A stretch of 64,000 nucleotides of DNA from a bacterium (lineage in GTDB: Bacteria > Desulfobacterota > Desulfovibrionia > Desulfovibrionales > Desulfovibrionaceae), in the NCBI GenBank assembly GCA_037230945.1, contig JAXUUT010000104.1, positions 26,504 through 90,503 on the forward strand, given 5' to 3'. Position numbers and translations under genes: made by a program. The notes below the pieces were generated by a model that ran no database searches, was not told the origin of the DNA, and was given only the letters and a program-made list of their open reading frames with translations. Below, piece by piece: positions 9,869 through 60,852 of the stretch. The first letter of the stretch is position 1. Each line of letters begins with the position of its first letter.

Positions 9869-9955
9869 TGGTACCCGGTGCGGGGCTTGAACCCGCAAGT
9901 CCTTGCGGACGAGGGATTTTAAGTCCCTTGCGTATACCAGTTTCGCCACCCGGGC
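9869..9955 (-). tRNA. tRNA-Leu (anticodon TAA)
   Basis: The reverse complement reads GCCCGGGTGGCGAAACTGGTATACGCAAGGGACTTAAAATCCCTCGTCCGCAAGGACTTGCGGGTTCAAGCCCCGCACCGGGTACCA. It has a long variable arm, a TTCAAGC T-loop, an encoded CCA, and anticodon loop CTTAAAA. Confidence 0.9.
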
Positions 9956-36632: not shown

Positions 36633-37691
36633 CTACCGGTAATTCTCCAGCAGAAACATGGGCTTGATGGCCACGACTTCGTCGTATTCCGTCTGACTGA
36701 CCTTCACGCTGGAATTGAGAGAGCGGAGCACGGCCTTCATGTCTTCGTAGGCCCCGGAAACCGTCTCGGAACGTCCCTCCCTAATGGAACGGATCATGCG
36801 CGAAAGCGTGGCGGGATGCGCATAGCGGGCAGGCAGAGGGAAATCGGGATAGTCCTTTATGTAGTCCTCCATGTCGGCGCGGGCTCTGTCCAGCGCGGCC
36901 GCTATGGCCCGGCTGTTGTTGCGGGCCGTAGGCAGAACGTTGGCCCCGGCAAAAAAGAACAGCACAGCGAGACCTATGAGCGTGACGTATATGCCGTAGT
37001 CGCCTTCACCGGAAAACCACGTGTACGCACCGTAGGCGGATGCAACGAGGGCAAGACAGAAAATGGCGAGCGCCACCCACTTGTGCACGGGATTAGTCAG
37101 TTGATCGACGCGTCTGGCCTTGCTTGCCGCGGCAAGGCGCGTGGCAAGGTCGGGGCGCTTTTCCAGAAACGCCATGGCGTCGCGAAGCATGGCAAGACTT
37201 TTCTCAGCCTCGGCAGAAAGATGCTTCACATATCTCGCCTCTTCCGCGGCTCTGGCTTCGGCGAGCCTTTTTGCCGCAGCCTCGGACATGGTCTTGATGT
37301 GGGGGAAACGGTGCTGAATTTCGGCAAGCATCATGTCCACATGGCTTTCATGCTTGAACGTGCACTGCACCTTCTCTCCGTTGTCGTATTCCACCACGAG
37401 ATAGGGAATGGAACCGAAGATGCCCTTGCCGGTAAAACCGCCCTTGCTCATGGCCACGCGCTTGTAGGCCCGCTGAATGTTGGAGGCGGGCACATAAAAA
37501 CGGCGCTCCATGAACAGACTGTTCAGATACAGAGCCTTGTGCCCGACGCCGCAGGGACCGAACACGAGACAGGACTTCCGATCGTCCCTGAGCTCCTTGT
37601 CGCCCAGCCCTGCACTGCCGAGTCTGGCTGGTTTGAAATACAGCATCATGCGCTCTCCGGGGAAGTGAATTTCGCACTCGTGCGGCACCAT
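36633..37691 (-). CDS. Hypothetical membrane protein (N-terminal globular domain, coiled coil, 2 TM helices, C-terminal domain)
   Basis: The ORF has coding-like composition and TM segments WVALAIFCLALVASAYGAYTWF and IYVTLIGLAVLFFFAGANVL. I recognise no family. The true start may be Met-15 (37649), which has GGAGAG upstream. Confidence 0.6.
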   Translation of the reverse strand: MVPHECEIHFPGERMMLYFKPARLGSAGLGDKELRDDRKSCLVFGPCGVGHKALYLNSLFMERRFYVPASNIQRAYKRVAMSKGGFTGKGIFGSIPYLVVEYDNGEKVQCTFKHESHVDMMLAEIQHRFPHIKTMSEAAAKRLAEARAAEEARYVKHLSAEAEKSLAMLRDAMAFLEKRPDLATRLAAASKARRVDQLTNPVHKWVALAIFCLALVASAYGAYTWFSGEGDYGIYVTLIGLAVLFFFAGANVLPTARNNSRAIAAALDRARADMEDYIKDYPDFPLPARYAHPATLSRMIRSIREGRSETVSGAYEDMKAVLRSLNSSVKVSQTEYDEVVAIKPMFLLENYR

Positions 37692-37863: not shown

Positions 37864-39312
37864 TCAGGCGCGACGAGCGCGGGTCGCACGCAGGAACAGG
37901 GTCAGGAACAGCGCGGCCACGACCACGCCGATCACATAGGAAACGGCGACGGGCAGCTGCACCACAAGGCCGAGACACTCGGGAGCCATGCAGAAGTAGG
38001 TGCTGGACACGGCGCTCATGAAGGTGGCGGGCACGGCGGTGATCCAGAAGTTCTTCTTGTTGAGGAAGAGGTACATGGAGGCGGCCCACAGCACGATCAT
38101 GGCCAGAGTCTGGTTGGTCCAGCTGAAGTAACGCCACACGATGGTGTAGTCGAGCTGGCTGATGAGAGCACCGGCACCGAGCAGCGGCACGCAGAAGATG
38201 AGACGGTTCTTGTAGCTGGTCTGCGAAACCTTGAACCAGTCGGCCAGCACCAGACGGGCGGAACGGAAGGCCGTGTCGCCGGAGGTGATGGGGCAGGCGA
38301 TGACGCCGACCATGGCAAGGCCGATGCCTATGCCGCCCATGGTCTTGCTGCACACGTCGTAAATGGCGGCGGACTGGCCGGCGGCGAGGCTGGCAAGAAG
38401 ACCGGTGGTCTGACCGTCGGTGATTTCATAGATGGTGCAGCCGGCAGCGGCCCAGATGAGGGCGATGATGCCTTCGCACACCATGGCGCCGTAGAACACG
38501 AAGTGTCCCTGATGTTCGCTCTTCATGCAGCGGGCCATAAGAGGAGACTGCGTGGCATGGAAACCGGAAATGGCGCCGCAGGCCACGGTGATGAACATGA
38601 AGGCCCAGATGGGCGTACCCTTGGGATGCATGTTGGTGAAGTGATCCCAGAGTTCAGGAATCTGATAAGCGGGGTTCACCACGATGCCGGCGCCCACGCC
38701 CACAGCCATGATGATGAGGCAGATGCCGAACACGGGATAGATCTTGCCGATGATCTTGTCGATGGAAATGAAGGTGGCGATGAAGTAATACACCAGCACG
38801 ACCGTCAGCCAGAAGGAAGCGTTCAGCAGAATGCCGGAAGCGCCGGCTTCGCTGCACAGCTTGACGATGAGGCCGGCAGGACCCACCGCAAACACGGTAC
38901 CCACCATGACGAGCAGCACCACGGAGAAGACGCGCATGATGGTCTTCATCGTGGAGCCGAGGTAGATGCCGGTGATTTCGGATACGGAAGCACCGTTGTT
39001 GCGCTCACTGGTCATGCCGGAGAAGAAGTCGTGAACGCCGCCGGCAAAAATGGTGCCGAAGGTGATCCACAAAAACACGACGGGCCCCCAGAGCGCACCC
39101 TGAAGCGCACCGAAAATGGGGCCGAGACCGGCGATGTTCAAAAGCTGAATGAGGAACAGCTTCCACTGAGGAAGCACCACATAGTCGACGCCGTCATTGA
39201 TGACCACGGCGGGAGTCTCCCGGTCGTCCGGACCAAAGGTATTCTCTACCAACTTGCCGTAGGTAAAGTAACCGATGATCAGCAGGGCCAGGCACAGAAA
39301 GAAACTTACCAT
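37864..39312 (-). CDS. cstA: Carbon starvation protein A family transporter (peptide/pyruvate uptake)
   Basis: 482 aa and polytopic, with FGPDDRETPA, HWGLFxxLxNIAGxGPIxG-like LNIAGLGPIFGALQGALWGP, and ACGAISGFHATQSP. Confidence 0.9.
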   Translation of the reverse strand: MVSFFLCLALLIIGYFTYGKLVENTFGPDDRETPAVVINDGVDYVVLPQWKLFLIQLLNIAGLGPIFGALQGALWGPVVFLWITFGTIFAGGVHDFFSGMTSERNNGASVSEITGIYLGSTMKTIMRVFSVVLLVMVGTVFAVGPAGLIVKLCSEAGASGILLNASFWLTVVLVYYFIATFISIDKIIGKIYPVFGICLIIMAVGVGAGIVVNPAYQIPELWDHFTNMHPKGTPIWAFMFITVACGAISGFHATQSPLMARCMKSEHQGHFVFYGAMVCEGIIALIWAAAGCTIYEITDGQTTGLLASLAAGQSAAIYDVCSKTMGGIGIGLAMVGVIACPITSGDTAFRSARLVLADWFKVSQTSYKNRLIFCVPLLGAGALISQLDYTIVWRYFSWTNQTLAMIVLWAASMYLFLNKKNFWITAVPATFMSAVSSTYFCMAPECLGLVVQLPVAVSYVIGVVVAALFLTLFLRATRARRA

Positions 39313-40112: not shown

Positions 40113-40252
40113 GCATCCTCCCGGCTCCTGCAATGAACAATGAGGAGCCGCCTGTTTTTAATCGTCAGACGCTGCGGCGCCGCACAAGGCATCCCGCAAA
40201 CGCCGATGGCAGATTCCGGTTCAGAAAAACGGACGCCCTTCCCCGCCCGGAC

Positions 40253-41314
40253 CTATCTCGCTTCCTCATGCAGGGCGCAGGGAGCCTCAAACCGCTTGGC
40301 GCAGGACACGCAGGCGTCCGGAGGATCGGCCGTCTGCACGGATGCGCGAAAGCTTGCGTATTCCGAATCGGCCCATATGTCTGCAGGGCTTTTCTCCCGC
40401 ACGCAGCCGAAGACCGTGCGGTTCGGCTGCGGCTCCTTGAGCGGCACGTTCAGATACACGCAGGGCGAAACAAGCCCGTCGGCGTCCACGTACAGCGTTC
40501 GATGCGCCCTCTCACGGCAGCACGGTGCGGGCTCCGGCGCGGGAAGCGACGCATAGAAATCGCGGCCCCCGGCTCGAACGCGCGCGCCCACCTCCTCAAG
40601 CACCGCGCGCGCAGCCTCTATCTTGTCCCGTTCATGGGGCGCAAAGGCCTCCTTCGCCATGTCTGGCGAAGGAATGTAGTCCATGGTGCTGATGACCGCC
40701 GCATGCACGCCCCAGTCCTCCATGAGTTCAGGCAGCCCGCGCACGGCCTCCACGTTTGAGGCAAGCATGAGATAGGCCAGATGAATTTCCAGATGCACGG
40801 CATTTTTTTCCCGGCGGATCTTCTGCAGAGTTTTCACGGCGTTCTCCACGCGGGAAAAGGGAATGCCGGCACGGGCCCCGTTGCTCTGCTCGTCCGTGCC
40901 CACCAGAGAAAAGGCCACAATGTCCATGCCGCTTGCCACAATGTCTTCCGCCAGCTTCTCATTCATGACCATGCCGCAGGTCGTCGTGGAGACGGCGCAT
41001 CCGGCTCTGCGGGCAAGCGACACCAAGTCCATGAAATGCGGATTGAGAAAAGGTTCTCCCCAGCCCTGCAGATGCACGCGTCCCGCCCGCGTCATGACGG
41101 GCCAGAGCGCGGCAAAGGTCTCGGCCTCCATGTGTCTGCTCTTCCACACGTCCGCACGCGTGGTGTGCGGGCAGTACACGCACTTTCCCATGCAGCATGA
41201 GGTTACTTCCACCTGCAGACATTCCAGCTCACGCGGCCGAAGAAAGTCGCGCAGATCCTGCAGAATTCCGGGAGCCCGAAACCTTGAGAAAAGCCGTTTG
41301 ACGTCGGTTGCCAT
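40253..41314 (-). CDS. Radical SAM enzyme with a SPASM/twitch-like C-terminal Cys cluster
   Basis: CxxxCxxC motif (CMGKCVYCPH), then GWGEPFLNP. The C-terminal auxiliary-cluster region is PCCRERAHRTLYVDADGLVSPC...FGC...CVSCAKRFEAPC, with a GxxxxC element. The ATG has an AGGAG SD and lies 13 nt after the stop of the upstream gene. Confidence 0.85.
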   Translation of the reverse strand: MATDVKRLFSRFRAPGILQDLRDFLRPRELECLQVEVTSCCMGKCVYCPHTTRADVWKSRHMEAETFAALWPVMTRAGRVHLQGWGEPFLNPHFMDLVSLARRAGCAVSTTTCGMVMNEKLAEDIVASGMDIVAFSLVGTDEQSNGARAGIPFSRVENAVKTLQKIRREKNAVHLEIHLAYLMLASNVEAVRGLPELMEDWGVHAAVISTMDYIPSPDMAKEAFAPHERDKIEAARAVLEEVGARVRAGGRDFYASLPAPEPAPCCRERAHRTLYVDADGLVSPCVYLNVPLKEPQPNRTVFGCVREKSPADIWADSEYASFRASVQTADPPDACVSCAKRFEAPCALHEEAR

Positions 41315-41327
41315 GCATTTTCTCCTG

Positions 41328-44003
41328 CTAGAGCGTCCAGCTCGTTTCCAGATGCGGCATGAGCTCGAAGGCTCCCCACTTCTTCTTGAAGAAGGTGATG
41401 CCGCCGTCTATGCCGAGCCCGAGGTTCAGCACGCTCTGCCCGCGGCGCACGGCCTCGTCTGCAAGCGCCTGCAAAAGCGCGTCGCTCACGCCGGGAGGAC
41501 AGTCGTCCTGCCGGAAGGCAAACATGTAGAAGGCCGTGCAAAGCGCGCTGTAGTCGCCCACGGCCATGGCGAGCAGCCTGCCCGAGGCATTGCGCGCGGC
41601 AAAGAGCACGGCATCCGGCGATGCCTGCACATATGCCCCGACTCTGCCGAAGATGTGCCTGGTTCCGGGGGCGAGCGTACGTACCTTGAGGTAATGATCC
41701 ACCAGCGCGTCGTGTTCCGGTCCCCAGTTCTCCACGGCAACGACGGCTTCCCTCTGCGCACGGCGGAGCATGTTGCGCAGCTTCTGCCCCGGCGTGTGAG
41801 GAAGATTCACGCACCACCACGCGTCGCGCTCCACCACGGCCCTGTCCGGCGCGGCGGCGGGCACGACAGGCGCGAGCACCGTGATTCTGCGAAGGTTCGG
41901 CATGGCAAGCGCGCAGGCAACGGCCTTTCCCAGCCGTTCGTCATACGCCGCGGAGCCGACGGCGCAGAAAGTCTGCTCATCCTGCGCGGGAAAGGCCACC
42001 AGCGTGCAGCTGTCGGCCGTGGTCCAGGCGGCAAAGCCCTCGCACGAACGCAGCGTGCGTCCCGACACCGCTCTCACGTAGGAAGGAATCTGTTCCGGCA
42101 CCACGGCCCTCGCACCGAGATCGGCGAGTCTTCTGCCGGAAGACGGACCGCGGGACGCCACAACCCGTTCCGCGCGTTCTCCGGCGCCTTCCCTGCGCAG
42201 CGCGGACGAGCGCACGTTTTCCGCCGGAGCCTTTTCCCACGCGGGCGCGTCGGGGTTGCCCGGCAGCACCACGGAATCGTCCCTCCGGATCCAGGCGGAG
42301 AATCGGTGCTTCCAGGTCGGCAGCACGCGGGTCACGGTAAAGCCGTCCTCGGACAGCATCTGCCGCAGATTGATCATGTGGGCCGAGCCCACGAACACCG
42401 CCGTTCCTCCCCGCTCGATGTACGGACGCATTCTCTCGCGGAAGCGCTGATCGCGCACGCTGATGATGGTGCCCGTGCGGGTGGGAAATTCTGCGCTCGT
42501 CCCCATCATGCCCATGAGGTCTCCCGCAAGATAGCGGGAACGGTTGCTCTTCATGAGCTTCGGCCAGAAGGAACACTCCTTCATGAATCGTACGATGCGC
42601 TCCATGGGCGCGGACTCAAGCGAAGCTATCTGCTCGGCAAGACTCTCCATGCCCATGACCGACTTGCCCATGTCGAGCGCGACGTCCCACACTTCGAGAT
42701 CCACGGAGTTCGTCCAGCCGTTGCGCTCAAGATACGACGTCCAGAGCGAGAAGAAGGCGTACCACTGACGGCTTTGTGCAAGCACGGCGCGCACGTCGAT
42801 GCGCCGCTCCTGCTGCACGCCGACAAGCCGTGCAAGAAATCCTTCCGGCCCGTAGACCATGCGTTCAAGCCGGACGACGTCCTCTTCGGAAAGAAACTGC
42901 GCCACGCGCGGCGCATCGGGCTCGGGAGAACGGCCGATGCGCGCCACCTCGTCCATGCTGTCGGAATCTATGGGCCCTTCCAGAAGCACGGTGTCCACGT
43001 TTTCAAACAGTCGCCGCAGGGAATGTTCAAAGGAATAGCAGAAGAAGTGTGCGGAGCCGCCTATCCACGACGTGCGTCCGTTCTTGTCGAGGCGCCAGAG
43101 CATGGCGCAGGGACGCTGCTGGGGAAGGGAATCAAAGAACTTCCAGCGCGACATTTCATAGATGCTCGACGAGGAGCCTATGCTTATGGCGAGATACGCC
43201 GCCATGTCGAAAAAGCCGCCGCTGCCCGTGAGACTTGCGGAAGGCTGCCACACGGCAAGCTCATAGGGCGCATCCTTCACGCCGCCCCACTTTTTCTTGA
43301 AGCGGGTTATGCCCTCGTTCACGCCGAGTCCGAGCAGCACGGTGCTCTTTCCCTCGGCCCGGGCCCGCTCCAGCATTTCGGCAAAAAGAAGGTCGGGCGC
43401 GTGCGGGACGTAATGGGTCTTGGAGTGTGCGCCGAGCACATAGCTCACGTGCTCCGGCAGGGAATAGTCCAGCAGAAGACAGGCAGCAAGCTGTCCCTCG
43501 GCGTCCCAGGCGTTGAGCAGCCTGAGATCGGCCTTTCCGCGGAGGGCCGAAGCCGTGCCGGAATAGAGCTGGCGTATGCGCGGAGGAAGCGGAATGCGGG
43601 AGAGAAATTCCGCCCACAGCCGCCTGTGCTCCGGCGAAAACTCCCGCGTTTCATCCACCGTAAGGCGTTCCCCCGCATGCCGCACAGGCCCGCGCAGCTT
43701 TGCGGGTACGGCAGCAGAGGCGGAAAGCGTGTAGTATACGTCGCGATCCTGCACGCAGTCCTTCAGTCTCTCGGGCATCTGCGGCGCTATGGCGAAGCAG
43801 TCGGAAGGCTTGACCCGGCGCAGGGCTTCGTCAAGCGCCTTCTCGAACCTCTGTACGGAAAACTCTCCTTCCAGCGGATAGCCTATGGCCATGAGCCAGT
43901 CGCCGTCCGCGACGAATATGTGACTGTCCAGCTCGAAGGAATGACCTGCCGACAAGGCCTCAAGAAGGGGCCGTGAATGTTCGGGAACGGTGACTGCGGA
44001 CAT
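41328..44003 (-). CDS. 891-aa fusion protein: FemAB/CelD-like GNAT-fold module + TraB/GumN (TIKI-superfamily) domain + second GNAT-fold module
   Basis: The central region has TraB/GumN-type motifs: MLWRLDKNGRTSWIGGSAH, VLLEG, VDLEVWDVALDMGKSVMGMES, YLAGDL and AVFVGSAHM..EDGFTV. Both termini end in LGLG[VI]..GIT.FKKKWG, typical of FemAB/BioF2-like acyltransferase folds. The ATG at 44003 has an AAGGAG SD. The ORF-track start at 44135 is also possible. Confidence 0.8.
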   Translation of the reverse strand: MSAVTVPEHSRPLLEALSAGHSFELDSHIFVADGDWLMAIGYPLEGEFSVQRFEKALDEALRRVKPSDCFAIAPQMPERLKDCVQDRDVYYTLSASAAVPAKLRGPVRHAGERLTVDETREFSPEHRRLWAEFLSRIPLPPRIRQLYSGTASALRGKADLRLLNAWDAEGQLAACLLLDYSLPEHVSYVLGAHSKTHYVPHAPDLLFAEMLERARAEGKSTVLLGLGVNEGITRFKKKWGGVKDAPYELAVWQPSASLTGSGGFFDMAAYLAISIGSSSSIYEMSRWKFFDSLPQQRPCAMLWRLDKNGRTSWIGGSAHFFCYSFEHSLRRLFENVDTVLLEGPIDSDSMDEVARIGRSPEPDAPRVAQFLSEEDVVRLERMVYGPEGFLARLVGVQQERRIDVRAVLAQSRQWYAFFSLWTSYLERNGWTNSVDLEVWDVALDMGKSVMGMESLAEQIASLESAPMERIVRFMKECSFWPKLMKSNRSRYLAGDLMGMMGTSAEFPTRTGTIISVRDQRFRERMRPYIERGGTAVFVGSAHMINLRQMLSEDGFTVTRVLPTWKHRFSAWIRRDDSVVLPGNPDAPAWEKAPAENVRSSALRREGAGERAERVVASRGPSSGRRLADLGARAVVPEQIPSYVRAVSGRTLRSCEGFAAWTTADSCTLVAFPAQDEQTFCAVGSAAYDERLGKAVACALAMPNLRRITVLAPVVPAAAPDRAVVERDAWWCVNLPHTPGQKLRNMLRRAQREAVVAVENWGPEHDALVDHYLKVRTLAPGTRHIFGRVGAYVQASPDAVLFAARNASGRLLAMAVGDYSALCTAFYMFAFRQDDCPPGVSDALLQALADEAVRRGQSVLNLGLGIDGGITFFKKKWGAFELMPHLETSWTL

Positions 44004-44218
44004 GAGAGACTCCTTGGCACGCTTGTGAGGAATATGCCATATCCATGCCGGACGGTAAAGAAGACCCTGCTGCCGCCCGTCTGCAGCGCCGTACCGCAAA
44101 CGACGCAACGCCGGACAGGCCGCCCCAGGCGTCATGCCCGGGATTGCCGAGGGAAACTTTCTGTTATAGGGTATCCGGATATCCCTTTGTTTCCCTTAAA
44201 AATTTTTTTGGTGTCTTC

Positions 44219-45031
44219 ATGACAAGCTTCCTTCAGATCGTGCTCATACTCGTCTGCGGCGGTTCGCTCGTCGGTCTTCTGTCCGGCATGTTCGGCGTGG
44301 GCGGAGCCTTCATCATCGTGCCGCTTTTGAACATTCTCTTCACGCAGATGGGCATTTCACAGGACATCGTGCAGCATCTGGCCGTGGGTACCGCGCCTTC
44401 GACCATGCTCATCACCTCCCTGACCACCTTCATCGCGCACACGCGCATGGGCTCCATGCGCTGGGACGTCTGGAGAATCATGCTTCCCGGCATCATCGTG
44501 GGCGCAGTCTCCGGCGCGCTTCTGGCCCATCACGTCAACGGCCGCACGCTCGAAGCGCTCTTCGGCGTCATTCTCCTGATCATATCCTCGCAGATGTTCA
44601 TCGGACGCACCCCGCGCCCCAACGAAAAAATGAAGAAGTTTTATGTGCCGGTCAGTCTGTTCGTGGGCATGATCGCCAGCATGACCGGCGTGGCGGGTTC
44701 CATGCAGATCATCATCTTTCTCGTGTGGGCCGGTCACGACTGGTGCGACAGCGTGAGCACGGCTGCCGCCCTCACGCTGCCCATATCGCTCACGGCCACC
44801 ATAAGCTATGCAATCCTCGGCTGGAATCAGCCGGGGCTTCCCGAATGGTCTCTCGGCTATGTCTATTTTCCCGGCACGCTTTCGCTCATGATCCCAGGCG
44901 TCATCATGGCCGTGGTGGGGGCAAGGCTCGCCCACTGGTCCGGCCTGCCGCTGACGAACCTGAAACGCTTCTTCGCCCTGTTCAGCCTCTTCATCGGCGT
45001 GTCCTCCCTGTATCGGGCTTTCTTCGCCTGA
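44219..45031 (+). CDS. TauE/SafE (DUF81) family anion/sulfite exporter
   Basis: MTSFLQIVLILVCGGSLVGLLSGMFGVGGAFIIVPLL, about 8 TM segments, 270 aa. I used ATG 44219. Confidence 0.8.
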   Translation: MTSFLQIVLILVCGGSLVGLLSGMFGVGGAFIIVPLLNILFTQMGISQDIVQHLAVGTAPSTMLITSLTTFIAHTRMGSMRWDVWRIMLPGIIVGAVSGALLAHHVNGRTLEALFGVILLIISSQMFIGRTPRPNEKMKKFYVPVSLFVGMIASMTGVAGSMQIIIFLVWAGHDWCDSVSTAAALTLPISLTATISYAILGWNQPGLPEWSLGYVYFPGTLSLMIPGVIMAVVGARLAHWSGLPLTNLKRFFALFSLFIGVSSLYRAFFA

Positions 45032-45185
45032 TGCGGCACGGAACGCCGCGCTGCCCTTCTGTTCAAGACTTTTTTCTCATGGTTCTGACATATTGCCTTT
45101 TTTGAAAGGCCGTCTACAGTTACCCGCAGAAGCACGGCGTGCCTCAGGCCCGCCGCTCCCCACTCCGCAAGAAAACGAGGTTCCC

Positions 45186-46694
45186 ATGTTTGAAACAGTC
45201 GTACTTGGCAGACGTTGCAGCGACAGGGAATACAAGGAACAGGCCCCGGATCTGCGCATGAAGTTTTTTGAGGCGCAACGGCAGTGCATGGACCGCAAGA
45301 TTCCTCTGCTCATCATCATAGCCGGCATAGACGGCGCAGGCCGCGGCGCGGTCATCAACCTGCTGTCGGAGTGGATGGACAGCAAGCACGTGCACAACCA
45401 TGTGTTCTGGATGGAAACCGACGAGGAGCGTGAACGCCCCGAAGACTGGCGCTACTGGCGCAGGCTCCCGGAGGCCGGAAGCGTGGGCGTATTTTTCGGC
45501 GGATGGTACGGCCTTGCCATGCGCAAGTTCAGCTCGGGCGACATGAGCGAGATGGCCTTCAGCTCCCACATGCATCACTGCCGCGGACTTGAGGAAAGTC
45601 TCGCCGCTTCGGGCATGGCCATAGCCAAGATATGGCTGCACCTCGACCGGAAAGAGCATGAAAAACGGCTCAAGAAGCGTCTGGCACACAAGGAAGTGCT
45701 TCATTTCACGCCCTACGACAAAAAGGCCTCCGAAAATTACGACGGCCTTGCCAGCGCCGCGGCACGAGCCATCACGCTGACCGACCGTGCCTTCGCCCCC
45801 TGGACCGTCGTTGACGCGGCGGACGCAAACTACCGCAATCTTGCCGTGGCAAAGGCCGTCATCGCCACGGTGGAGCGCGCCGTTGCCGGACAGGAGGCCA
45901 GAAAGGCCCGTCTTGCAGAAAAAGCCGCCGCGCCGCAAAACGTCATTTCCACGCTGGATGCCATAGACCTGAGCGCAAAGGCAGATCCTGATACCTACAA
46001 AAAGGATCTGGCCGATCTGCAGACCGAGCTGCATGAACTCACCTACCACGCCTGGCGCAAGGGAATTTCGAGCACGCTCGTGTTCGAGGGCTGGGACGCC
46101 TCGGGCAAGGGCGGCAGCATACGACGCCTCATGGACGGCATAGACGCCCGCATAAGCCGGGCCATTCCCATAGGCGTTCCGTCCGACGAAGAGCTGGCTC
46201 ATCACTACCTGTGGCGCTTCTGGCGACATGTGCCCCGTGCCGGATTCATCACGGTGTACGACCGCTCCTGGTACGGCCGCGTGCTGGTGGAACGCGTGGA
46301 AGGGCTTACGCCTCAGGAGGACTGGAGCCGGGCCTACTCGGAAATCAATCTTTTTGAGGAACAGCTCATAAATCAGGGCAACGTGCTTCTGAAATTCTGG
46401 CTGCACATTTCCCCGGACGAGCAGCTGCGCCGCTTCAAGGAACGGGAGTCGACGCCGTGGAAGCAGTACAAGATCACGCCCGACGACTGGCGCAACAGAG
46501 AAAAATGGCCGGAATACGTGCTTGCCGCCGACGAAATGTTCCTTCGGACCAGCACGGACTACGCGCCATGGCACATCATTCCCGCGGAAGACAAGAAATA
46601 CGCCAGACTTTCGGTACTGCGCACCTATCGTGACGCGCTGAAGAAGGCCCTGAAGCAGGCCGACGGGAAAAAGGACGGCCGCGACAAGAAATAG
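45186..46694 (+). CDS. Two-domain polyphosphate kinase 2 (polyphosphate:AMP phosphotransferase type)
   Basis: Two PPK2 repeats. The N-terminal repeat has a degenerate P-loop (GIDGAGRG); the C-terminal repeat has GWDASGKGGSIRRL and DRSWYGRVLVERVEG. I used ATG 45186. Confidence 0.88.
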   Translation: MFETVVLGRRCSDREYKEQAPDLRMKFFEAQRQCMDRKIPLLIIIAGIDGAGRGAVINLLSEWMDSKHVHNHVFWMETDEERERPEDWRYWRRLPEAGSVGVFFGGWYGLAMRKFSSGDMSEMAFSSHMHHCRGLEESLAASGMAIAKIWLHLDRKEHEKRLKKRLAHKEVLHFTPYDKKASENYDGLASAAARAITLTDRAFAPWTVVDAADANYRNLAVAKAVIATVERAVAGQEARKARLAEKAAAPQNVISTLDAIDLSAKADPDTYKKDLADLQTELHELTYHAWRKGISSTLVFEGWDASGKGGSIRRLMDGIDARISRAIPIGVPSDEELAHHYLWRFWRHVPRAGFITVYDRSWYGRVLVERVEGLTPQEDWSRAYSEINLFEEQLINQGNVLLKFWLHISPDEQLRRFKERESTPWKQYKITPDDWRNREKWPEYVLAADEMFLRTSTDYAPWHIIPAEDKKYARLSVLRTYRDALKKALKQADGKKDGRDKK

Positions 46695-46854: not shown

Positions 46855-48042
46855 ATGCCCGAACTCTCTCATGAAAAAAAACTTCTCCTGGATGAAATCC
46901 AAAATCTGTCCGACCAGATGAGGGAAACAGCCTCCGCCATCTTTGCCGAACCGGAGCTGGGATATCAGGAATTCAAGTCTTCCGCCCGTCTTGCCGACCT
47001 TCTCGAGTCAAACGGCTTCAAGGTGGAACGCAACCTGCTTGACATGCCCACGGCCTTCCACGCCAGTTTCGGTTCCGGAGAAGGACCGCAGGTAGCGTTT
47101 CTTGCCGAGTTCGACGCGCTTCCCGGCCTCGGGCACGCCTGCGGGCACAATCTTTTCGGCACGGCAGCCTGCGGCGCCGCCGTGGCGCTTGCCCGTCATC
47201 TTCCCGCCGGAACCGTGCACGTGTTCGGCACACCCGCCGAGGAAGGCAACGTCAGAGACGCTGGCGGCAAGGTTCCCATGGCCGACGCCGGCCTCTTCGA
47301 CAACATGGACGCCGTCATTGCCGCCCATGCCGAAGGACGCACCATTCTCAAGCAGCAGCTCATTTCCCGCGCCAATCTTGAAATGGACTTCAAGGGCAAG
47401 GCCGCCCATGCCGCCGGCGCTCCGGAAAAGGGCATCAACGCCATGGACGCCGCGGCCCTTGCCGTCATGGGCATCAACAGCCTGCGCCAGCACATGACCC
47501 GCGACGTGCGCATTCACGGCCTGCTCACCGACACCGGCACCTCCATCAACACCATTCCCGAGTTCGCCCGTCTGCGCTACGGCGTGCGCGCCCGCAAGCC
47601 GGAAACGCTCAACAACGCCATCGAACGCGTGGTCAACTGCGCGCGCTGCTGCGCCATGGCCCTCGGCTGCCAGTTCTCCTATCGCCATTCCGCACATCCC
47701 TACTACACCATGCGCCACAATATGCCTCTGCTGCACGCCTTTGCCGCCAACCTTGACCTGCTCGGAGAGGACTACATCGAAGAAGTGCAGAGCAGCTATT
47801 CCACCGACATGGGCAACGTCAGCTTCAAGGCTCCTTCCATCCATCCCTACATTTCCATCGGCGGAGCGCACCTTGTGGGCCACACGCCCGAATTCGCCGA
47901 GGCCTGCAACGGCGAAGGCGGCTTCAAGGGGATGATCCTCGCCGCAAAATCCATGTGCCTGACCGGATTCGACGTGCTCACCAATGAAGAGCTCCGCAAG
48001 GCTGCGCGCAAGGCGTTTGAAACGCTTGACGACTTCGACTGA
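46855..48042 (+). CDS. M20 family amidohydrolase (AbgB / aminoacylase-like)
   Basis: GHACGHNLFG, FGTPAEEG, and a dimerisation-lid region. It is followed by an AbgT-family transporter. Confidence 0.8.
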   Translation: MPELSHEKKLLLDEIQNLSDQMRETASAIFAEPELGYQEFKSSARLADLLESNGFKVERNLLDMPTAFHASFGSGEGPQVAFLAEFDALPGLGHACGHNLFGTAACGAAVALARHLPAGTVHVFGTPAEEGNVRDAGGKVPMADAGLFDNMDAVIAAHAEGRTILKQQLISRANLEMDFKGKAAHAAGAPEKGINAMDAAALAVMGINSLRQHMTRDVRIHGLLTDTGTSINTIPEFARLRYGVRARKPETLNNAIERVVNCARCCAMALGCQFSYRHSAHPYYTMRHNMPLLHAFAANLDLLGEDYIEEVQSSYSTDMGNVSFKAPSIHPYISIGGAHLVGHTPEFAEACNGEGGFKGMILAAKSMCLTGFDVLTNEELRKAARKAFETLDDFD

Positions 48043-48150
48043 TATCCCTATCCCTAATACCCCGGCGCATCACGTCGCGGACCTTCCGCGCCGTGATGCT
48101 TTGTATAAGGACCTTTTTACATCTGCACCACGCCCAAGGAGCTCCAGGCC

Positions 48151-49665
48151 ATGGCGAAAGAACAAATCGAAAACCTTTCCGGCATACTCGGCTTCATCGA
48201 ACGAGCCGGCAACAGGCTGCCGCATCCCGTCACCATCTTTCTGATCCTTACGCTGATCGTCATGGTCATCTCCTACCTTCTGCAGGGAATCACCATGGTC
48301 GACCCCAAGGGAAAAACGCTGGTCGTGCAGAGCCTCGTCTCGGTGGACGGCCTCACCTGGTTCCTTAAAAACTGCGTGGACAACTTCGTGCGCTTCAAGC
48401 CCCTCGGCCTCGTGCTCGTCATGATGCTCGGCCTCGGCGTGGCCGAAGAGGTGGGTCTTCTCTCCGCCGTGCTTCGCGCCACCATTCTCAGCGCGCCCCG
48501 CAGCATGGTCACGGCCATCATCGCCTTCTGCGGCGTCATGGGCAACATGGCTTCCAGCGCGGCCTTCGTGGTGGTTCCTCCCCTCGGCGCCATGATATTC
48601 AAGGGACTCGGACGCAATCCTCTGGCCGGCATGGCCACGGGCTTCGCCGGCTGCGCCGCCGGTCTCAACGCCAACCTTCTGGTGGTGGGCACCGACGTGG
48701 GCCTTGCCGCCATCACGCAGCAGGCCGCCCAGATCATCGATCCTTCCATCACCGTGCATCCTGCCGTCAACTGGTACTTCATGTCGGCCTCGACCTTCCT
48801 CGTCACGGCCATCATCGTCTTCCTCACGGAAAAGTTCGTCGAGCCCCGGCTTGAAGGCGTGGTCATGCACGAAGGCGCCATGGGCAGCGAAGACATGACC
48901 GTCACGCCCGAAGAGCGCCGCGGACTGCGCGCCGCCCTCATCGGCGGACTCATCTACATCTGCCTCATTCTGCTCACCGTGGTGCCCGAACACGGCATTC
49001 TGCGCAACCCCAAGACCTTCAGCATCGTGCCTTCCCCCTTCCTTGACTCTCTCGTGCCCATCCTGCTGGTGTTCTTCCTTGCCGTGTCCATTCCCTACGG
49101 CGTGAGCACCAAGGTCATACGCAACGACAAGGACGTGGTCCGCTTCATGGGGCAGGCCATGCGGGAATTCTCCTCCTTCATCGTGCTGTGCTTTGCCGCC
49201 GGTCAGTTCGTTTCCAGCTTCGCCTACACGCATCTTGACATGTACCTGTCCATACAGGGCGCGGCATTCCTCAACGACACGGGCTTTTCCGGCATTCCGC
49301 TCGTGGTGAGCTTCCTCATCCTCACCGCCTGCATCAACTTCTTCATCGGCAGCGCCATGGCCAAGTGGGCGCTTCTGGCCCCCATCTTCGTGCCCATGCT
49401 CATGCAGATGCAGCTTTCGCCCTACTTCGTTCAGGCCGCCTACCGCGTGGCCGACTCCACCACCAACGCCATCTCGCCGCTCGAGCCCTTCATGGCCTTC
49501 ATCATCGGCGTGGCTCAGAAGTATGCAAAAAACGCGGGCCTCGGCACCATCATTTCCCTCATGCTGCCCTATGCGCTCGGCATCCTCTTCTTCTGGGGGC
49601 TGTTCCTCATCCTCTGGATGGAAATGGATCTGCCCCTCGGTCCCGGCGCACCCGTGTTCCTGTAA
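48151..49665 (+). CDS. AbgT family (p-aminobenzoyl-glutamate type) transporter
   Basis: 504 aa and polytopic. The N-terminus LGFIERAGNRLPHPVTIFLIL is typical of AbgT/MtrF. Confidence 0.85.
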   Translation: MAKEQIENLSGILGFIERAGNRLPHPVTIFLILTLIVMVISYLLQGITMVDPKGKTLVVQSLVSVDGLTWFLKNCVDNFVRFKPLGLVLVMMLGLGVAEEVGLLSAVLRATILSAPRSMVTAIIAFCGVMGNMASSAAFVVVPPLGAMIFKGLGRNPLAGMATGFAGCAAGLNANLLVVGTDVGLAAITQQAAQIIDPSITVHPAVNWYFMSASTFLVTAIIVFLTEKFVEPRLEGVVMHEGAMGSEDMTVTPEERRGLRAALIGGLIYICLILLTVVPEHGILRNPKTFSIVPSPFLDSLVPILLVFFLAVSIPYGVSTKVIRNDKDVVRFMGQAMREFSSFIVLCFAAGQFVSSFAYTHLDMYLSIQGAAFLNDTGFSGIPLVVSFLILTACINFFIGSAMAKWALLAPIFVPMLMQMQLSPYFVQAAYRVADSTTNAISPLEPFMAFIIGVAQKYAKNAGLGTIISLMLPYALGILFFWGLFLILWMEMDLPLGPGAPVFL

Positions 49666-60758: not shown

Positions 60759-60852
60759 TGGCGGAAGCGTATAGGAGTCGAACCTACCTCAGACCTCTCA
60801 GCCTGACACTGGTTTTGAAGACCAGGCGCAACACCGGTTACGAGACGCCTCC
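60759..60852 (-). tRNA. selC: tRNA-Sec (selenocysteine, anticodon TCA)
   Basis: The reverse complement reads GGAGGCGTCTCGTAACCGGTGTTGCGCCTGGTCTTCAAAACCAGTGTCAGGCTGAGAGGTCTGAGGTAGGTTCGACTCCTATACGCTTCCGCCA. It has an 8-bp acceptor stem, anticodon loop CTTCAAA, a long variable arm, and the AGGTTCGACTCCT T-arm also found in E. coli selC. Confidence 0.92.

Follow-up and report, generated by a model that had tools for sequence, protein, structure and literature searches.

We report that a gene for a radical S-adenosylmethionine (SAM) enzyme in a Desulfovibrionaceae genome (GenBank assembly GCA_037230945.1, contig JAXUUT010000104.1, positions 26,504 to 90,503 of the forward strand; these 64,000 nucleotides are called the window throughout) belongs to a conserved module, in which it follows a TraB-type hydrolase domain flanked by two tandem-GNAT domains that resemble aminoacyl-tRNA transferases. 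The module is conserved, and partly fused, across hundreds of sulfidogenic genomes, including those of human gut species tied to hydrogen sulfide production. Each of its four domains has a known fold and the conserved combination is undescribed: neither the TraB, tandem-GNAT and radical SAM module nor the architecture of two transferase domains flanking TraB was found in the literature searched, which leaves out some journals. The domain identities, the cysteine pattern of the enzyme, the linkage and the gene fusions are direct observations. Within the SPASM/twitch group, the majority of radical SAM enzymes are without an assigned function, and their gene neighbourhoods are usually read as those of maturases acting on peptides made by the ribosome and modified after translation (RiPPs). 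We consider it about an even chance (a probability of roughly 0.5) that these four domains instead constitute a self-contained, presumably aminoacyl-tRNA-dependent module in which the radical SAM enzyme remodels an aminoacylated intermediate.

Conserved linkage and fusion of the module genes

The gene upstream of the radical SAM gene, hereafter the fusion gene, encodes 891 aa from an ATG at 44003 and has homologues of 871-891 aa; a longer open reading frame (ORF) of 935 aa was set aside as unsupported. The junction of the two genes reads TAG-caggagaaaatgc-ATG, with the TAG of the fusion gene at 41328-41330 and the ATG of the radical SAM gene at 41314. An original prediction, made from the letters of the window alone, had placed this ATG 13 nt past the stop of the 891-aa gene and given it an AGGAG of its own, and both are seen in the sequence. 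Directly 3' of the radical SAM stop codon, a hairpin at 40230-40249 may possibly mark the end of a two-gene operon consisting of the fusion gene and the radical SAM gene; it is a weak candidate, and terminator-like sites in this region are no more numerous than in shuffled sequences.

A pattern scan with one genome per species identified 514 genomes that encode a relative of the radical SAM enzyme, of which the best 80 loci were examined, drawn from Desulfovibrionaceae (Mailhella, Bilophila wadsworthia and Desulfovibrio piger), Syntrophobacteraceae and Desulfobacterales. Loci were searched by tblastn with the window proteins and then submitted to a strict order test. The order N-terminal tandem-GNAT domain (N-domain), TraB domain, C-terminal tandem-GNAT domain (C-domain) and radical SAM enzyme, all on one strand, was found at 70 of the 76 informative loci; seven further loci end at contig edges, and three of these show the module up to the edge. 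This order is kept down to 46% identity of the radical SAM protein and across three families of Desulfobacterota, while the flanking genes differ. The C-domain gene and the radical SAM gene are mostly separated by -10 to +29 nt, a 4-nt overlap being frequent, and the start and stop codons of the two genes overlap in many genomes.

The way in which the domains are distributed over genes varies among lineages. The N-domain, TraB domain and C-domain form a single protein only in the Mailhella group, together with one distant triple fusion (41% identity) that is again followed by a radical SAM gene with a 4-nt overlap. Outside Mailhella the module comprises either a protein of ~563-620 aa that joins the N-domain to TraB, accompanied by a separate C-domain gene, or three separate genes, and such split genes were seen, for example, at loci L004 and L002. 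Gene fusion has also joined the C-domain to the radical SAM enzyme itself, in one in-frame ORF, in two lineages: Syntrophobacteraceae (loci L048 and L079) and a Desulfovibrionaceae metagenome-assembled genome (L058). Such fusions also occur in protein collections, with lengths of 615 aa (P0243) and 633 aa (P0245), the 615-aa fusion being called as a single gene in its source annotation.

The linkage of the radical SAM gene to the fusion gene is real, and the two are translationally coupled. The tight coupling to a GNAT-TraB-GNAT gene that had been proposed from the window is thus borne out by the conserved order and by the fusions in two lineages; the accompanying question, whether orthologous radical SAM genes always sit next to such a gene, is answered affirmatively for the 70 loci and negatively for the remaining six, which are considered further below. 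An adjacency that is functionally meaningless, with an unrelated radical SAM enzyme merely sharing an operon, would fit the few genomes in which the enzyme lies apart from the module. We regard this explanation as extremely improbable, given the persistence of the order between differing flanks and the start/stop overlaps in many genomes, and the fusions already contradict it.

Two transferase-like domains and a TraB hydrolase domain

Both tandem-GNAT domains of the fusion protein resemble aminoacyl-tRNA transferases, and from this likeness of fold and family we infer an aminoacyl-tRNA donor. The N-domain matches PF13480 at 31.1 bits (cut-off 22) and is paralogous to the C-domain, the two sharing 30% identity across 203 aa (E 1e-20). 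Among aligned C-domains from members of the family, PF09924 (LPG_synthase_C, the synthase domain of MprF) matches 11 of 11, with a best E-value of 2.7e-8, and PF13480 matches 10 of 11. An AlphaFold2 (AF2) model of the fusion protein (mean predicted local distance difference test score, pLDDT, 85) comprises three folded domains with disordered linkers at residues 257-290 and 590-612, and these linkers are unconserved among homologues. When the model was searched with Foldseek, the top matches were FemX, MprF and the synthase domains for alanyl- and lysyl-phosphatidylglycerol (E ~1e-8), together with Sba18 and Sbb17, the last two being aminoacyl-tRNA-dependent peptide synthases. TraB-type structures were absent among the 50 matches listed for this whole-fusion model, and searches of PDB sequences with the fusion protein and with a C-domain profile returned nothing useful. 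The motifs GLG..GI..FK.KWG and QKLRN..RRA of the tandem-GNAT domains resemble those of FemABX proteins. Although the predicted tandem-GNAT fold resembles that of FemX/FemABX and of the C-terminal domain of MprF (DUF2156), the module differs from MprF in that it has no membrane flippase domain and its transferase domains flank TraB.

The central domain of the fusion protein matches the TraB family PF01963 at 101.9 bits (cut-off 26.8), and its residues H319, E342, E453/E457 and H542 are invariant in 56 of 56 aligned sequences. Active hydrolases of the TIKI superfamily, which cleave peptide or ester bonds, are marked by a 2His/2Glu motif (PMC6254334). As judged from sequence, the TraB domain of the module retains this motif in common with TIKI, TraB and PrgY hydrolases.

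A Twitch domain with one probable auxiliary cluster

By motif and Pfam match, the 353-aa protein belongs to the radical SAM superfamily. Its Pfam matches are far above chance: Radical_SAM (PF04055) scores 52.7 bits (cut-off 29.5) over residues 35-167, and residues 266-338 are covered by SPASM with 38.4 bits (cut-off 21.5). These matches bear out its earlier placement in the SPASM/twitch group, and the CxxxCxxC motif that had been read as CMGKCVYC is found at C41, C45 and C48. Homologues number 753, the nearest being from an uncultured Mailhella (Desulfovibrionaceae) at 94% identity. When 72 relatives were aligned, C41, C45, C48, C106, C266, C285, C335 and C338 proved to be the invariant cysteines.

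A full hidden Markov model (HMM) search of 1.84 billion representatives extended this comparison to a wider family of 411 clusters (E < 1e-30), from which 97 full-length sequences were used for cysteine counts. C41, C45 and C48 are kept in 96 of the 97, and C266, C285, C335 and C338 in 95 of the 97, whereas 83 of the 97 have no cysteine beyond C338. C106 is conserved in about half of the wider family and is replaced by serine in two of the fused homologues (L048 and L079). Three further cysteines near the C-terminus of the window protein, C265, C305 (that of its FGC motif) and C347 (that of its APC motif), are confined to Mailhella. The conserved pattern is accordingly C-x13-G-x4-C ... C-x2-C, in which C266 and C285 are spaced as C-x18-C; it lacks the CX2CX5CX3C segment of the seven-cysteine SPASM motif, CX9-15GX4C-gap-CX2CX5CX3C-gap-C.

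The Twitch domain, a SPASM domain in truncated form, binds one auxiliary cluster, with cysteines flanking a beta-hairpin and a CxxC past the next helix (PMC9012708). All of these elements are seen here: four cysteines, a predicted hairpin at residues 273-283, a predicted helix at 310-325 and a CxxC that aligns with that of BtrN. In the AF2 model of the radical SAM enzyme (pLDDT 94, predicted TM-score 0.91), a barrel of alternating beta and alpha elements is followed by this hairpin and helix, which lie between the two cysteine pairs. The Pfam SPASM match to a region with only four of the cysteines arises because the Pfam model also covers Twitch domains. By its sequence pattern the C-terminus is therefore a Twitch domain and not a full SPASM domain, and the enzyme probably carries one auxiliary Fe-S cluster besides the SAM-cleaving [4Fe-4S] cluster. 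The original prediction of a cysteine-rich C-terminus binding auxiliary clusters consequently holds in part, in that the cysteine-rich end is present, while conservation is limited to four of its cysteines and a single cluster is likely.

Beyond the module-associated enzymes, the wider family comprises ~400 clusters at 50% identity (P0251-P0389) of radical SAM proteins of ~330-360 aa with the same four-cysteine Twitch pattern. In these, the 30-residue N-terminal segment seen in the window protein is missing, and tryptophan and asparagine take the places of C32 and C113, respectively.

An enzyme outside the named functional families

No NCBIfam model reached the window protein or any of 17 scanned relatives at even a third of its own cut-off. 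The best model, TIGR04317 (W_rSAM_matur, tungsten cofactor oxidoreductase radical SAM maturase), scored 125.5 bits against a cut-off of 380, followed by TIGR04311 (rSAM_Geo_metal) with 114.2 bits against 400 and the PqqE model with 63.9 bits against 381, with MoaA, NirJ and AhbD lower; the 17 relatives gave the same outcome. Membership in the anaerobic sulfatase-maturating enzymes (anSME), PqqE, MoaA, NirJ/Ahb, mycofactocin, viperin and DesII/BlsE families was ruled out on these scores. Models for anSME were absent among the 25 best of 35 NCBIfam matches and a sulfatase gene was not seen in annotated loci or in the scanned parts of the window, nor was a pqq gene context found around the radical SAM gene. 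A role as a defence system was likewise discarded, PADLOC giving only weak, generic viperin-core matches for the enzyme and none for its partners. The enzyme thus stands outside every named functional family tested, while belonging to a known superfamily and, by its sequence pattern, to the Twitch subgroup. A clean fit to a known subgroup combined with a lack of conserved linkage to the fusion gene, the outcome that had been named as speaking against a dedicated partnership, failed to appear on either count, with no model near its cut-off and linkage at 70 of 76 loci.

Structural comparisons place the enzyme similarly. Foldseek of its model against the PDB ranked DesII and BlsE first (the latter a radical SAM decarboxylase of the Twitch type) and returned CteB, SkfB, SuiB, anSME, PqqE and BtrN as well. 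TM-scores for the listed structures are ~0.5-0.67 (0.47 for BtrN), and since they are similar throughout, the fold places the enzyme in the SPASM/twitch group and does not identify its substrate. By sequence profile, the best PDB match is BtrN (E 3e-12), the butirosin 2-deoxy-scyllo-inosamine dehydrogenase and archetypal Twitch enzyme, whose terminal CxxC aligns with C335/C338. Both proteins have a barrel, a C-terminal cysteine pair around a beta-hairpin and a CxxC past a helix. However, BtrN is shorter (~250 aa against 353 aa), shares ~17% identity and sits in an aminoglycoside cluster, whereas the family described here has an extra 30-residue N-terminal segment and other partners. Because a Twitch domain with one probable cluster and the small-molecule enzymes BtrN, DesII and BlsE as nearest solved relatives point elsewhere, the earlier premise that SPASM enzymes mostly modify peptides or proteins is weakened as a guide to this particular enzyme.

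The NCBIfam results raise the alternative that the enzyme matures a metallo-cofactor or metalloenzyme, as proposed for TIGR04317 and TIGR04311, with the TraB and GNAT proteins as accessories. All 17 members scanned match both models over their full length (E ~1e-33 to 1e-37), residues 30-349 of the window protein aligning with positions 3-322 of a 349-position model, and tungsten and molybdenum enzymes abound in Desulfobacterota. Nonetheless, the scores (125 and 114 bits) are about a third of the cut-offs, an aldehyde:ferredoxin oxidoreductase or other metalloenzyme gene is not conserved beside the module and was not seen in the annotated loci, TraB and tandem-GNAT partners stand in place of an adjacent tungsten oxidoreductase, and the functions of TIGR04317 and TIGR04311 are themselves just predicted. 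We therefore view a metallo-maturase as distinctly improbable.

The search for a substrate gene or further partners

Consistent with the original prediction, which had found no small ORF beside the gene that could encode a substrate peptide, no convincing candidate is present in the window at 40134-40252 or 44004-44221, where only ORFs overlapping the flanking genes occur. Small ORFs were clustered over two ranges, those of 18-110 aa lying up to 700 bp from the module and those of 20-90 aa in unmasked intergenic DNA as far as 10 kb away, in ~80 genomes, and neither set yielded any that is conserved across clades. Where small-ORF clusters did recur, which was in close Mailhella relatives only, they proved to be rpmH or out-of-frame shadows of real genes. 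More generally, ORF clustering over 85 loci, filtered by GC content at third codon positions (GC3), revealed nothing beyond the module at more than 17 of the 85, and what was found at that level reflects clade-specific synteny; Rfam and tRNA scans of the window gave nothing near the radical SAM locus. The 170-aa GNAT protein encoded downstream of the radical SAM gene was considered as a member of the module and rejected, its gene being found at this place in close Mailhella relatives only.

These results bear directly on whether the enzyme is a RiPP-like maturase of a peptide or protein, for which a precursor would be encoded elsewhere in the genome, TraB would serve as a processing protease and modification of the peptide would fall to the GNAT-like domains. 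Such a role would be in keeping with the abundance of peptide maturases in the SPASM/twitch group, with the third rank of PqqE among NCBIfam models and with TIKI/TraB enzymes of known activity, which are proteases or act on peptide pheromones; the enzyme also shares with PqqE, SkfB, CteB, SuiB and anSME the Pfam SPASM match and the overall fold (TM ~0.6). It differs from the RiPP maturases and anSME in lacking the CX2CX5CX3C segment, a RiPP recognition element (RRE), a PqqD partner and a nearby precursor or sulfatase gene. A PqqD-like RRE domain is absent from the protein, in which the barrel starts at about residue 30 and therefore leaves no room for one at the N-terminus, and a PqqD-like partner gene is not conserved nearby. 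Taken with the likelihood of a single auxiliary cluster, and with BtrN and the top fold matches acting on small molecules, the lack of a conserved small ORF within 10 kb makes a RiPP-like maturase unlikely in our judgement.

A third possibility is that the target is the fusion protein itself, the radical SAM enzyme modifying or activating it, for example at a residue of a GNAT or TraB domain. The tight translational coupling and the physical fusion to the C-domain would be expected of such a pair, although gene fusion is equally compatible with sequential action on one substrate. We consider it highly unlikely, because the disordered linkers show no conservation and most genomes encode the domains as separate proteins; nor did we see a conserved Gly or Cys motif of the kind that is typical of such targets. 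Among the options originally left open, namely a substrate encoded elsewhere, a domain of the fusion protein or something other than a peptide, the last thus fits best, and the substrate is probably not a gene-encoded peptide.

A proposed route for amino acid remodelling

Returning to the interpretation in which the four domains act together on an aminoacylated intermediate, we infer the use of aminoacyl-tRNA, the acceptor, the chemistry and the order of the steps as follows. The two FemX/MprF-like domains would transfer amino acids from aminoacyl-tRNA onto an amine or hydroxyl of an acceptor that is not encoded beside the module; possible examples are a primary metabolite, an envelope precursor and the terminus of a protein. 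The radical SAM enzyme, coupled or fused to the C-terminal transferase, would act on the aminoacylated intermediate by hydrogen-atom abstraction and then finish a two-electron oxidation or bond formation, for which its auxiliary cluster may act as the electron acceptor; this is the role proposed for the single auxiliary cluster of BtrN in its two-electron oxidation (PMC9012708). Finally, the TraB domain, with its 2His/2Glu motif, would hydrolyse an ester or amide, either releasing the product or removing a transient aminoacyl group.

A precedent for combining such steps exists in blasticidin S biosynthesis, where the radical SAM enzyme BlsE, the tRNA-dependent leucyl transferase BlsK and a late removal of leucine occur in one pathway (PMC12710036). 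By analogy the module could work in a blasticidin-like way, with a radical SAM enzyme of the same fold, an aminoacyl transfer that depends on tRNA and a later hydrolytic step that takes the amino acid off again. The differences are considerable: the antibiotic blasticidin S comes from a Streptomyces cluster that has many more genes, the radical SAM enzymes share ~16% identity and the hydrolase is not of the TraB type, whereas the module consists of four conserved domains only and is spread through Desulfobacterota chromosomes. More speculatively, the module may represent a ribosome-independent pathway in which transferases load an acceptor, the Twitch enzyme remodels the loaded residue and release or trimming of the product falls to a TIKI-type hydrolase, giving rise to a new small metabolite, cofactor or envelope modification. 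It is a similarly tentative suggestion that the logic of this pathway resembles that of scaffold-based, amino-acid-derived natural products, the enzymes being entirely different.

A number of observations weigh against this interpretation. The use of aminoacyl-tRNA is suggested by resemblance of fold and family alone; acyl-CoA-dependent tandem GNATs (such as Eis, NMT and VipF) share the fold, ranking lower in the Foldseek list of the fusion protein, and the C-domain of the window protein itself falls under the Pfam cut-offs, with 18.5 bits for PF09924 and 17.5 bits for PF13480. The HMMs closest to the radical SAM enzyme are those of putative metalloenzyme maturases and not of small-molecule enzymes. 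In terms of gene context, six of the 76 informative loci lack a full adjacent module: no module domain lies near the radical SAM gene at L001, L064 and L073, an inverted C-domain alone lies upstream of it at L065, a C-domain alone is found ~2.6 kb away at L082, and the C-domain is inverted at L081. At L001 (4052-5083, from Desulfocurvus) the radical SAM gene is placed immediately 3' of lptF and lptG, and another stand-alone radical SAM gene occurs at L089 (8001-9035). Conversely, a 790-aa homologue of the fusion protein (P0177; L086, 7001-9373) has no adjoining radical SAM gene; since this contig has several split genes, such as rtcB in two pieces, assembly errors may be involved. Lastly, the one distant member of the wider Twitch family for which the contig provided usable context (L090, 2566-3585) lacks a neighbouring TraB gene and is flanked by Metallophos upstream and Peptidase_M3 downstream. 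The fold alone therefore does not imply a TraB/GNAT partnership, which defines a radical SAM subfamily at ~370 bits or more in the wider HMM search.

Should the proposed reading prove correct, the pathway would occur widely among Desulfobacterota that reduce sulfate and sulfite, the gut genera Bilophila, Desulfovibrio and Mailhella among them, and tRNA-dependent, non-ribosomal amino acid chemistry would gain a new type of reaction. It would further provide a concrete biochemical setting for bacterial cytoplasmic TraB domains, the functions of which are largely uncharacterised. With only two to four genes in the system, co-expression makes direct testing feasible.

Other features of the window

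Table 1. Features of the radical SAM locus, fused homologues at other loci and further features of the window. Positions are those of the window unless a locus is named.
Feature	Position	Strand	Evidence or remark
Radical SAM enzyme gene, Twitch type	40253..41314	-	ORF with ATG start, 353 aa; Pfam Radical_SAM and SPASM
CxxxCxxC (C41, C45, C48), site for the SAM-cleaving [4Fe-4S] cluster	41171..41194	-	Conservation
Twitch domain, residues 266-338, C266-x13-G280-x4-C285 ... C335-x2-C338	40301..40519	-	Conserved cysteines, BtrN alignment, AF2 model
13-nt spacer with AGGAG, fusion-gene stop to radical SAM ATG	41315..41327	-	Sequence
Terminator-like hairpin and T-run, directly 3' of radical SAM stop	40230..40249	-	Weak
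N-terminal tandem-GNAT domain, FemX/MprF-like, fusion residues 1-256	43236..44003	-	PF13480, Foldseek
TraB/PrgY/GumN (TIKI-superfamily) hydrolase domain, fusion residues 297-575	42279..43115	-	PF01963
C-terminal tandem-GNAT domain, FemX/MprF-like, fusion residues ~628-891	41328..42122	-	PF09924/PF13480, from family members
C-domain-radical SAM fused ORF	L048 8966-11011
C-domain-radical SAM fused ORF	L079 4696-6810
C-domain-radical SAM fused ORF	L058 9008-10972		Same contig as L092 6001-7848
RimI-like GNAT acetyltransferase, 170 aa	39621-40133	-	Downstream of radical SAM gene, with the hairpin 40230-40249 between
Antisense ORF, 1037 aa	40863-43976	+	Opposite real genes
Antisense ORF, 951 aa	31758-34613	-	Opposite real genes
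Antisense ORF, 545 aa	37792-39429	+	Opposite real genes
tRNA-Sec	60759-60852	-	Anticodon tca; Rfam, 78 bits
tRNA-Leu	9869-9955	-	Anticodon taa
352-aa protein gene	36633-37691	-	No Pfam or NCBIfam match
CstA transporter gene	37864-39312
Two-domain polyphosphate kinase 2 gene	45183-46694	+	PPK2 in two stretches, E 1.5e-121
M20-family peptidase gene, then AbgT-family transporter gene	46855-49665	+

The three long antisense ORFs fail the GC3 filter that the genes on the opposite strand pass, and are therefore taken, in a window of 60% GC, for shadows of coding DNA rich in GC and not for genes. Two tRNA genes were identified in the window, for leucine and for selenocysteine, and the presence of the latter indicates that the organism uses selenocysteine. 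The 352-aa protein adjoins the CstA transporter gene, and this pair shows synteny within the Mailhella group only. On the other side of the module, a TauE-family exporter gene is divergent from the fusion gene and is followed downstream by the gene for the two-domain polyphosphate kinase 2. The M20-family peptidase and AbgT-family transporter genes beyond it, which are not conserved with the module outside Mailhella, could provide for the uptake and cleavage of dipeptides or of aminobenzoyl-glutamate.

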